The position numbers were made by a program, and so were the translations under genes. Positions 1,731 through 4,971 of a stretch of 32,000 bases of DNA are shown here, one piece after another (position 1 is the stretch's first letter; every line of letters starts with the position of its first letter). Source of the stretch: Candidatus Harpocratesius repetitus (GTDB lineage: Archaea > Asgardarchaeota > Lokiarchaeia > Sigyniarchaeales > Promethearchaeaceae). Below the pieces are notes generated by a model. That model searched no databases. It was not told the DNA's origin and saw only the letters and a program-made list of their open reading frames with translations. The stretch lies in NCBI GenBank assembly GCA_021498095.1, contig JAIZWK010000001.1, positions 2,130,001 to 2,162,000 of the forward strand, given 5' to 3'.

Positions 1731-2615
1731 TTAACACTCTTGATAATAAGAGAGAATGGATTCAATTATTTTTTTTGATAGATGTTTCGGAATACTATCC
1801 ACCGTTCCTTTTCCAAATGAAACTCCATCGATAATCTCATTATCATTTAAGATTTCAAGTAATTGCACTTCATTAATCCAAGAATAGGATATTCTTTCAT
1901 GATTTAATTTAGCCAATTCACATGCACAAGTTAAAGCAGCTAAATTTGAGGTGATTCCAACTAAAAAATCATTTGCGCTCTTTTCAACAGCAATTCCACC
2001 TCCACAACCACATACACATTTTTTTCCAAATGGAATTAAATGCTCAACCTTGGAATTCAGCATACCTAATCCTAATTCATTTCCCCCATCACCAATTCCC
2101 AGCCAAAATTCTGGTGGTTCGGCTTCTATTAAATATTCCAAATCATCAACTTGATCTGATATTGATTCTCCCCGCATATTATGACAAATTCCATAGTAAT
2201 TCTTTCCTGGTCTTTCAACACTAATCAAGATTGGTGGTAAATGTCTCAATTCAGAAATAGGCGTAAAGTGTATCTTTATTCTAGCTCGTGATGACCAAGG
2301 AAATTGTTCTAACACTGTAAGTAAAGGGGATTCTGTACTAATTATTACATTAATTCCTAGTTCTGCCAACAAATTTCCAAGAATAAATGTACCAATTGGG
2401 CCATCTGTCTCAAAAGTATTGTTTACTGGAAATCCTGTTGTAATTGCAACCCAAGATGATTTTAAAATTTGTTTTTGTAGGTGCACAGCAATTTCATTTA
2501 CTGATTGGATAATTATAGGTGGTGTTTTGACAAGTGTATATGCTCTTTTAGCTCCATTAGGTAATAATTCAAGGTATGGTTTTCCGAGGAGCAACGATTC
2601 AATAGAATGGTTCAT
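1731..2615 (-). CDS. D-glutamate cyclase-like protein (DUF4392 family)
   Basis: Motifs ITTGFP, ETDGPIG, ISVERPG, HNMRG, GIGDGGNELGLG, CxCGxGIA and SN in the family order. Confidence 0.8.
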   Translation of the reverse strand: MNHSIESLLLGKPYLELLPNGAKRAYTLVKTPPIIIQSVNEIAVHLQKQILKSSWVAITTGFPVNNTFETDGPIGTFILGNLLAELGINVIISTESPLLTVLEQFPWSSRARIKIHFTPISELRHLPPILISVERPGKNYYGICHNMRGESISDQVDDLEYLIEAEPPEFWLGIGDGGNELGLGMLNSKVEHLIPFGKKCVCGCGGGIAVEKSANDFLVGITSNLAALTCACELAKLNHERISYSWINEVQLLEILNDNEIIDGVSFGKGTVDSIPKHLSKKIIESILSYYQEC

Positions 2616-2787: not shown

Positions 2788-4971
2788 ATGGTCATGAATA
2801 TAGTCTTGCTCTTATTTTTAATCAGCACTGCCTCCTTGAATATGCTAATTCCTTCCTATTCTACTATTATTGACGAGTTCGCCATTTCAGAATCAGTAAT
2901 ATATCTCCCAGATTCTTTGTCTGTGTTAGTAACTGCATTTGTAATGGTATTATGGGGTTACTATACAGATAAAATTGATAGAAACAAAGTAATTAATTGG
3001 GGGGCAATTTTATCCGTGTTTGGGTTTGTTTTTACCGCTCTTTGTACCAATTTTCTTCAATTGCTTATCGCCCGCATCATCACAGGAGCAGGAATGGGAT
3101 TTGCCATACCCGTTGCTATATCTGTTTTAAGTGACATTGTTCTTCCTGAAGAACGCTCAGGTTTATTTGGATTTCTTGCAATTTTTTCTTCTGTTAGTAA
3201 TGGCATTGGTCAAGGCTTATCTGCATTTTTAGGACCATTGAATATTTTTGGTTTCGGATGGCAAATTACTCCACTAATTTTATCTTTTCTTGCTCTTATT
3301 GCAGTATTCCAACTTTTATTTGTCAATCTTCCCGATGTGGGTGCAAAGGAAGAAAGCTTAGCGAATATTCATGAATTTGAAGAAGTAGGATATGAATATA
3401 AGATTAATCAGCGCCAGCTAGTGAAACTTATTCAAAAGCCAACTAATAAATTCTTGATTTTAAATGGTTTTTTTTCCATAATTCCAGGAACTATCATTAT
3501 TTTTTCTCTTATTACAACATTTTCCCGAGAGATGCTGTATGTACTTCCTGAAAATATAAGAACGCAAGTTTCTACATTAATGGCAGGAGTAGCGAGTTTT
3601 GGTTATATTATTGGAAGTATTGTTCTCTCATGGTATGGAGATCTGCTTTACAAAAAAAATAGGAAAAATCGCGCTAGATTGGCTTTTATTTCTAACATTA
3701 TTGCAATTCCATTATGTATATTAATGATTTTTGAATTAAAGCCTATTTCTCTTGAAAATATGCCTGTTTATCCTGATCCTATTCCTACTGAAGAAATTAC
3801 CAAATTTATTTTACTTACCGTTTCTGCTATTTTTCAAAATTATCCAAATTATATTTTTTATATGATTTTTTCATTCTTTGGAACATTTTTCAGTGCAGGA
3901 ATGGTGATAAATAAAAATGCTGTTATGGTGGATGTGAATTTACCTGAGCATAGAGGAACAGCTTCTTCTTTCTTTCAATTAACCGAACAAGTCGGAAAAA
4001 GTGTTACATTAATGCTTACAAGCTTTTTACTGAGTATTGTAATTACTTATCAGAGACTTTTGTATATAAGTTTGATATTTTGGATTCCTTCTGCTCTATT
4101 ATGGTTATTGACTGTAAAAGCAATAACAAAAGATATTGATGAAAAAAATAGAATACTTAGAGAAAGACAGCAGATGACTCTAATTGATTACATTTTTGAA
4201 ATTAATATTGAAATTGATCGAGCCATACAAATAGTTCATGATGCTAAAAATAAAATTGTAAAAGAACCTCAAAATGCCTTAAAGATGATAGATAAAGCGA
4301 TATTACATTTAACACGAATTACAGAAAATGCCTCCAGACAAAAAATTGCAGATTTAGAAAGTCATTCACAAAATTTACTTGATCGTGCGAAACTTTTCCG
4401 GGATAATCTCAAAGAACTATTGGAGCTTCAAAAATTTGAAGATTTACCATATCTTTATCAGTTGATTGATGAAACTTGGGAAAAAAGTGATTTTGGAAAA
4501 ATTGAAGTATTATATGAAAGTGGTTATTTAAAAGTCGTTGAGGCGCGTTTGCATAGATATTATAATCCTATTGAATGCATCGAAATTTTACAAGATGCAA
4601 TTAGTATTTTTGATAAAGTAATTAGATTGGCTTCTGATAGAGTCGTAGAAGAAGGTATTAAGCGCTTAACAAAGGATGAAGAAGAATTGCAACAACGAAT
4701 TCATAATTTGATTATTTTGGCTCAAAAATCAAAATCAAACACAGAAGTATTAAAAGATAAATTAAACTCTATTATTCACTCGCTTCTAAGAGAAGATTTG
4801 ACCATGAAGCAATTACAAAGTGTTATTGCTTTAACTTCGGAATATGGATTAAAATTGGAAGATATAATTGAAGAAAGTTTTGATAAACGCATTTTAAGAA
4901 GATTCCAAAGAGCAATGAATCAAATAAATAATCTTTTCCGTGCTTATGATGAATGGCAAACACGTGAATAA
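2788..4971 (+). CDS. MFS transporter (about 12 TM) fused to a ~270-aa cytoplasmic all-helical tail with two MIT-like repeats
   Basis: MFS motif A WGYYTDKIDRNK, ARIITGAG, EERSG, and in the second half YGDLL and PEHRGTAS. Hydrophilic helical tail from about aa 455. Confidence 0.85.
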   Translation: MVMNIVLLLFLISTASLNMLIPSYSTIIDEFAISESVIYLPDSLSVLVTAFVMVLWGYYTDKIDRNKVINWGAILSVFGFVFTALCTNFLQLLIARIITGAGMGFAIPVAISVLSDIVLPEERSGLFGFLAIFSSVSNGIGQGLSAFLGPLNIFGFGWQITPLILSFLALIAVFQLLFVNLPDVGAKEESLANIHEFEEVGYEYKINQRQLVKLIQKPTNKFLILNGFFSIIPGTIIIFSLITTFSREMLYVLPENIRTQVSTLMAGVASFGYIIGSIVLSWYGDLLYKKNRKNRARLAFISNIIAIPLCILMIFELKPISLENMPVYPDPIPTEEITKFILLTVSAIFQNYPNYIFYMIFSFFGTFFSAGMVINKNAVMVDVNLPEHRGTASSFFQLTEQVGKSVTLMLTSFLLSIVITYQRLLYISLIFWIPSALLWLLTVKAITKDIDEKNRILRERQQMTLIDYIFEINIEIDRAIQIVHDAKNKIVKEPQNALKMIDKAILHLTRITENASRQKIADLESHSQNLLDRAKLFRDNLKELLELQKFEDLPYLYQLIDETWEKSDFGKIEVLYESGYLKVVEARLHRYYNPIECIEILQDAISIFDKVIRLASDRVVEEGIKRLTKDEEELQQRIHNLIILAQKSKSNTEVLKDKLNSIIHSLLREDLTMKQLQSVIALTSEYGLKLEDIIEESFDKRILRRFQRAMNQINNLFRAYDEWQTRE

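Follow-up and report, generated by a model that had tools for sequence, protein, structure and literature searches.

A lineage-specific, internally duplicated helical domain on a major facilitator superfamily transporter of Lokiarchaeal Asgard archaea

The stretch of DNA considered here (hereafter the window) comprises 32,000 nucleotides of the Lokiarchaeial genome of Candidatus Harpocratesius repetitus (GenBank assembly GCA_021498095.1, contig JAIZWK010000001.1, positions 2,130,001 to 2,162,000) and carries a gene for a transporter of the major facilitator superfamily (MFS) whose polypeptide continues beyond the membrane into a long helical tail. This tail constitutes a well-defined new, lineage-specific duplicated helical domain; a link between the transporter and the endosomal sorting (ESCRT) machinery, as originally predicted from what looked like two tandem MIT domains, is not among the demonstrated results. 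Large soluble domains are rare on MFS transporters, and the present one is conserved, single-copy and confined to a Lokiarchaeal order, the one to which the sole close relatives of eukaryotes in culture belong. In the reading that we prefer, and to which we assign a probability of roughly 0.6, the protein would be a secondary transporter of the MFS, specific to this lineage of Lokiarchaeal Asgard archaea, with a cis-acting cytoplasmic latch or sensor domain, perhaps including a groove for a partner helix.

The transporter and the repeat in its tail

That the membrane part belongs to the MFS, as first proposed, is borne out by Pfam MFS_1 (PF07690), which matches the protein at E 3.8e-40 (138 bits, the cut-off being 33.4), and by Foldseek. 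Queried with the AlphaFold model of the whole protein (predicted local distance difference test score, pLDDT, 79.5), Foldseek returned many solved MFS structures, among them SPNS2, FLVCR1, OxlT and NorA, at E ~1e-8 with template modelling scores (TM-scores, target) of 0.72-0.77, and nothing besides MFS matches. The product of 2788..4971 thus combines the profile match and the two-lobe fold of 12 transmembrane (TM) helices with a motif A, read from the sequence as GYYTDKIDRNK (aa 57-67) between TM2 and TM3. An NCBI protein with 97% identity is named an MFS transporter of Ca. Harpocratesius sp., and 80 orthologous genome loci cover residues 5-727 of the 727-aa open reading frame (ORF). At the sequence level, kinship to any solved MFS structure is distant (closest PDB sequences to the MFS core at E 1.5e-5 to 8e-4), so that the sequence does not reveal the substrate. 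Given the 12-TM topology and the basic residues that follow TM12, the tail should be cytoplasmic, in agreement with the location originally assumed for it.

The tail consists of 267 residues and is all-helical. An internal repeat had been read from two ungapped 41-aa strings, which are located at aa 476-516 and 576-616 and followed by proposed third helices at aa 529 and 640. Within the single sequence, the pair shares 7/41 identities (BLOSUM62 score 13), and since an equally good 41-mer pair occurs in 298/300 shuffled tails, it provides no evidence of a repeat by itself. The family, however, does. Homologues were collected in two sets, 15 from a word-index search and 22 clusters from an exhaustive HMMER search, and profiles of tail residues 1-90 (the first three helices) and 104-212 (the next three) were compared using hhalign. 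Unit 1 aligned with unit 2 over 82 columns at Prob 87.6, E 3.5e-6 and a score of 35.7; column-shuffle controls (n=150) reached a mean of 10.7 and a maximum of 18.2, shuffles of seven-column blocks (n=150) a mean of 12.6 and a maximum of 23.8, while reversing the profile gave 13.6. The register was reproduced at Prob 69.5 and E 4.3e-5 (80-82 columns overall) with a second, independent set of 75 tails, which were taken from genome loci and have a median identity to the window of 29%. Given that the shuffle controls lie far below the observed score and that the independent alignment agrees, the internal duplication is real, and we conclude from the profiles that it was a three-helix unit whose duplication gave rise to the tail domain.

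For helices 1 and 2, hhalign recovered the very offset of 100 aa that the original prediction had used, so that its two strings are present and homologous at the family level, even though their pairing in the single sequence is at chance. The pairing of the third helices did not hold up: it had been drawn at an offset of 111, whereas hhalign, which opens one insertion (18 aa) ahead of the third helix in unit 2, places it at 118, leaving the earlier pairing seven residues (two turns) out of register. The C-terminal 58 aa were also considered as a third copy of the unit and rejected, as hhalign against units 1 and 2 gave E 0.34 and 0.057.

A survey of the fusion across Asgard genomes, suggested earlier as a check, covered 201 genomes of the phylum, sampled on the basis of GTDB, and found it only in the order of the window. 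Here, the tail profile matched 37/40 genomes of the sister family as well as the window's genome; in the 160 genomes of 25 other families there was no match save one at chance level (18.7 bits). No match came from three further genomes of the family to which the window itself belongs, but these are 87-92% complete and scoring covered just 12 of the 15-22 first-look candidates in them, meaning that absence there is not established. The tail profile is single-copy in the window's genome, with one match per genome across 38 genomes, and the frames holding it measure ~750-785 aa, save four shorter frames that stem from short matches. Among 1.84 billion representatives, 22 clusters matched the tail, of which the long ones are all MFS plus tail and the short ones partial tails; no free-standing or differently fused tail was seen among the matches. 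The 80 loci with MFS plus tail include Promethearchaeum syntrophicum MK-D1 and Lokiarchaeum ossiferum, which makes the protein one that is present in culturable organisms.

Two further observations concern this distribution. Three loci (L043:154-4260, L050:180-6140 and L057:59-4625) hold tandem pairs of MFS-plus-tail genes on the same strand, which look like recent tandem duplications in some lineages. Moreover, orthologues at 37-40% identity occur in metagenome-assembled genomes (MAGs) labelled Thor-, Hod-, Hermod- or Odinarchaeota (L055, L064, L065, L070, L071, L084, L087, L095, L101, L103, L108 and L113), and one in a 'Nanopelagicaceae bacterium' (L068). The archaeal labels are at odds with the GTDB-based tally, which has the window's order only; probably, the submitters' MAG labels or the binning are coarse or wrong.

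Table 1. Features of the transporter gene, with positions counted from the first letter of the window.
Feature	Position	Strand	Basis
Whole gene, MFS transporter with C-terminal helical tail, 727 aa	2788..4971 (incl. stop codon)	+	ORF list
MFS core with its 12 TM helices (aa 1 to ~455)	2788..4152	+	Pfam, Foldseek, helix pattern of the model
Unit 1, predicted helices aa 465-487, 494-517, 521-547	4180..4428	+	Models, conservation in 75 tails, profile repeat
Predicted short fourth helix after unit 1, aa 550-563	4435..4476	+	Tail model
Unit 2, predicted helices aa 569-589, 594-616, 629-669	4492..4794	+	hhalign (E 3.5e-6 and 4.3e-5), model
Insertion of 18 aa (617-634) present in unit 2 but not in unit 1, loop and start of the long third helix	4636..4689	+	hhalign gap
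Predicted C-terminal helices aa 673-686, 690-697, 700-726	4804..4965	+	Model, VIA-align matches across model residues 106-267

At the other end of the gene, 22 open codons precede the ATG at 2788 in the same frame (2722-2790) without an ATG, GTG or TTG among them, and the N-terminus of the orthologues is ~20 residues longer than that of the window protein. Either the N-terminus has been shortened in this genus or a rare start codon is used.

Likeness to MIT domains and the ESCRT question

The original prediction took each unit for an MIT domain. What stands of this is the presence of two homologous three-helix units in tandem; an MIT signal in the sequence was absent in four tests. First, Pfam MIT (PF04212) has no match on the protein or the tail at E<=10. 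Second, of the 143 Pfam families matched by 44 orthologous tails at E<=10, the 25 with most matches do not include MIT. Third, when the 4.36-Mb genome was scanned in six frames with PF04212 at E<=1, the MIT domain of Vps4 was detected at 42 bits together with some TPR-like noise, this gene not being matched. Fourth, hhalign comparison of unit 1, unit 2 or the whole tail with 28 Asgard Vps4 MIT domains, taken from genome loci with the wrongly framed rows L011, L013 and L015 left out, yielded Prob <=3.2% and E >=0.014; as a control, two halves of this MIT set match each other at E 3.8e-37. An 'RA..L' pattern in helix 3, which had been likened to MIT domains, is not conserved in the consensus of the family. 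Pfam, NCBIfam and PDB sequence searches with the tail, alone and as profiles, likewise gave chance matches only (SOG2, Macoilin and designed proteins), and the ESM Atlas returned a best score of 0.84 and no family.

For fold comparison, the tail was modelled alone by AlphaFold with a 34-row alignment, resulting in a pLDDT of 87.3 and a predicted TM-score (pTM) of 0.60. Foldseek, which had been named as a check on the MIT assignment, gave no match below E 0.28; the highest probability among the matches listed, 0.66, belonged to the tandem-MIT region of ULK1. The tandem MIT of LIP5 was at noise level (E 1.3, TM 0.28). VIA-align had MIT-type domains within its top 50 in both runs, pairing unit 1 with the tandem MIT (tMIT) of Atg1 (score 9.3; root-mean-square deviation, rmsd, 2.5 Å; 86 residues), Katanin p60N (9.2; 2.2 Å; 74 of 78) and NRBF2 MIT (9.2; 4.0 Å; 83), unit 2 with Spartin MIT (8.9; 2.7 Å; 90 of 93) and Spastin MIT (8.4; 2.5 Å; 83 of 89), and both units together with ULK1 tMIT (11.0; 8.5 Å; 147). 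Many unrelated helical bundles score equal to or above these MIT domains. The models are compatible with each unit being a three-helix bundle of the MIT/TPR-like class, the MIT fold being compatible but unspecific. We infer that the tail represents a new domain family of generic MIT/TPR-like architecture rather than a demonstrable member of the MIT family.

Like the Vps4-type MIT domain (PF04212), the predicted units are up-down-up three-helix bundles with similar helix lengths, and Spastin, spartin, katanin and NRBF2 are among their natural matches, but neither the Pfam model nor the 28-domain Asgard profile recognises the tail, which moreover lacks an ESCRT gene context. The tandem MIT domains of Atg1/ULK1 (PDB 4p1n, 8soi) and Vta1/LIP5 (PDB 4txr) have no sequence or profile similarity to the tail, and the relative orientation of the two units differs from that in ULK1. 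Unlike in these proteins, the units of the tail are fused to TM12 of a transporter, are demonstrably duplicates and are followed by extra helices.

In line with the earlier statement that Asgard archaea encode ESCRT-III and Vps4, the window's genome has Vps4 (G000:C1:1848542, with its MIT domain at 1848542-1848733) and 3-4 genes of the Snf7 family. Two of the latter (ESCRT-III) lie head to head within 1.4 kb (G000:C1:1676580-1677101 and 1677445-1677939), a third is found at 3205367-3205852 and a weaker fourth at 4310962-4311291; their products and Vps4 would be the natural candidate partners of the tail. All of these genes are at least 0.29 Mb away from the transporter. Among the syntenic neighbours clustered from 81 loci, with the 10 most frequent clusters annotated by Pfam, there were no ESCRT genes and no conserved partner. 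With neither an MIT sequence signal nor an ESCRT gene link, the idea of ESCRT-III docking is without specific support. The original remark that a described MFS-MIT fusion is not known agrees with our search of a literature library, which found neither such a fusion nor a description of the tail; a broad survey of ESCRT systems mentions no transporter (Makarova et al. 2024, PMC10936438).

Could the units nevertheless be true, highly diverged tandem MIT domains—akin to those of Atg1/ULK1 or Vta1/LIP5—that bind helical motifs resembling MIT-interacting motifs (MIMs), specifically the C-terminal tails of ESCRT-III proteins in Lokiarchaea, thereby linking the transporter to turnover or to the remodelling of membranes? 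The Vps4 and Snf7-family genes of the genome would supply the partners. Set against this are Foldseek E-values of the tail that are all >=0.28, the rmsd of 8.5 Å in the ULK1 tandem match, the missing MIT sequence and profile signal, the extra intramolecular helices after both units and the lack of synteny with ESCRT genes, as well as a distribution in one order only, compared with the far wider MIT/Vps4, which is present in 53/61 sampled genomes of the phylum. We therefore regard such domains as distinctly unlikely, and it seems quite improbable that the units form an ancient, sequence-diverged tandem MIT module which docks ESCRT-III or another MIM-bearing protein onto a Lokiarchaeial solute transporter. 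Were this last idea true, the protein would be the first prokaryotic membrane cargo protein with its own ESCRT-binding domain.

A putative cytoplasmic latch or sensor

In the whole-protein model, a continuous helix (432-487) joins TM12 to the first helix of the tail, such that the last TM helix is predicted to run straight into a cytoplasmic domain of ~265-285 aa. A tail rigidly tied to TM12 in this manner would most likely have its effect on the transporter in cis. Coupled to TM12, it could bias the rocker-switch cycle in the manner of a cytoplasmic latch or sensor, and it may in addition present a docking surface or groove for a partner helix. It would not be a free-standing ESCRT adaptor. 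Should the tail regulate transport, it would be a built-in latch or sensor of a new type; if instead it binds partner helices in an MIT-like fashion, it would link a transporter to the membrane-remodelling machinery of Asgard archaea.

The tail is conserved along its whole length (15 + 22 database clusters and 80 genome loci, 26-97% identity). Its conservation peaks, across the 75 tails, in the helix directly after TM12 (I466, D467, Y468, F470, E471, L472, D477, Q481, D485 and K487), which is acidic and aromatic in character, several of its acidic and polar side chains pointing to the same side of the helix. In unit 2, conservation falls on S567, G570, Y576, A579, Y580, L581, E585, A586, R587, L588, Y608, R610 and R618, and in the C-terminal helices on L682, E685, T697, I713, F717 and Y720. 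With medium confidence, the model adds further helices to each unit, one short helix after unit 1 and three C-terminal ones after unit 2. The best fold matches to aa 461-567 are four-helix bundles of ~100 residues, suggesting that the short fourth helix closes unit 1, and fold matches extending across model residues 106-267 suggest that the C-terminal helices pack on unit 2. Model confidence is lower in the insertion of unit 2 (pLDDT 61 for tail residues 161-170).

Several transporters are known to carry fused cytoplasmic helical regulatory domains, namely the PhoU-fused YjbB, the SPX-MFS vacuolar phosphate transporters and the sugar porters with their latch of intracellular helices (ICH). The tail would resemble all three in being a cytoplasmic helical bundle able to regulate or latch a secondary transporter; its family is particular in that the domain is C-terminal, continues TM12 and is internally duplicated. 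Of the three, PhoU was compared with the tail by profile and shows no homology. The tail might be a PhoU-like pair of three-helix bundles sensing phosphate or metal, comparable to the Na/Pi cotransporter-type YjbB of E. coli, and the outline of a transporter followed by two repeated three-helix units is the same. Yet against a profile built from 21 Asgard PhoU repeats, the whole tail and each of its units stayed at Prob <=0.7% and E 0.08-0.4 in hhalign, and the candidate was rejected. A genome scan with PF01895 at E<=1e-6 had two own-genome matches among the matches listed (28 more being unlisted), neither of them in this gene, and PhoU structures are missing from the top fold matches of the tail. 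We give this explanation hardly any credence.

Alternatively, the tail might serve mainly in oligomerisation or as a scaffold, its long amphipathic helices dimerising the transporter or tying it to a cytoskeletal or membrane scaffold. The all-helical composition, the 41-residue third helix of unit 2 and a net charge of -7 would fit such a role, and F-BAR and designed oligomer bundles appear among the weak Foldseek rows. The helices are, however, predicted with high pLDDT to fold back into compact bundles as a monomer, and there are no significant coiled-coil or BAR matches, which is why we consider this role unlikely.

Several points weigh against the latch or sensor. The pLDDT drops to 55 at the junction (aa 461-470) and the pTM is just 0.58-0.60, so that neither the rigidity of the link nor the way in which the units are placed to each other is certain, and a contact between the tail and the cytoplasmic face of the MFS core would be hypothetical. 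Genuine MIT and tandem-MIT domains do match structurally, with >90% of the domain covered at an rmsd of 2.2-2.7 Å. Known MIT-like domains such as those of Atg1, Vta1 and katanin are themselves undetectable by sequence, so that these structural matches leave room for an MIT-like role in peptide binding.

Comparison with Spinster-like transporters, gene neighbours and a hint at the cargo

One orthologue bears the JGI name 'Spinster family', and among the whole-model Foldseek matches SPNS2 has the highest TM-scores (0.76-0.77), at just 12% identity. A PDB sequence search at E<=0.001 found no SPNS chain, and NCBIfam has no model at or above its cut-off on the protein. With MFS transporters of DHA1/Spinster-like fold (SPNS2, NorA, OxlT and MHAS2168), the window protein shares the 12-TM core and motif A at TM-scores of 0.72-0.77, but these are only 11-19% identical to it and none has a C-terminal domain of ~270 aa.

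In the window, the transporter is surrounded by genes for a 2TM protein, a PadR regulator, a D-glutamate-cyclase-like protein and an SNF2 ATPase. The syntenic neighbours in the large sister clade encode an amino-acid racemase, two unknown proteins, PAC2, a zinc-ribbon protein, a ThiS-like protein and DUF2070, among others. The racemase gene (Pfam Asp_Glu_race, 2e-30; NCBIfam TIGR00035, 3.5e-52, above cut-off) is located ~127 bp upstream on the same strand in 33/80 orthologue loci (e.g. L090:5194-5877). The D-glutamate-cyclase-like protein (PF14336, 1.9e-40) is the divergent upstream neighbour in the window (1731-2615, minus strand). That the transporter has two different enzymes of acidic or D-amino-acid chemistry beside it, each in another clade, hints that its cargo may be an acidic (D-)amino acid or derived from one.

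The two proteins of unknown family, of 182 aa (L073:8761-9306, minus strand) and 205 aa (L080:9764-10378, minus strand), have no Pfam match and accompany the transporter in 58-59 of the 80 loci, and a ThiS/ubiquitin-like protein of 92 aa (L104:8620-8895, minus strand) does so in 24 loci. All three are encoded downstream on the opposite strand and are syntenic in the large sister clade.

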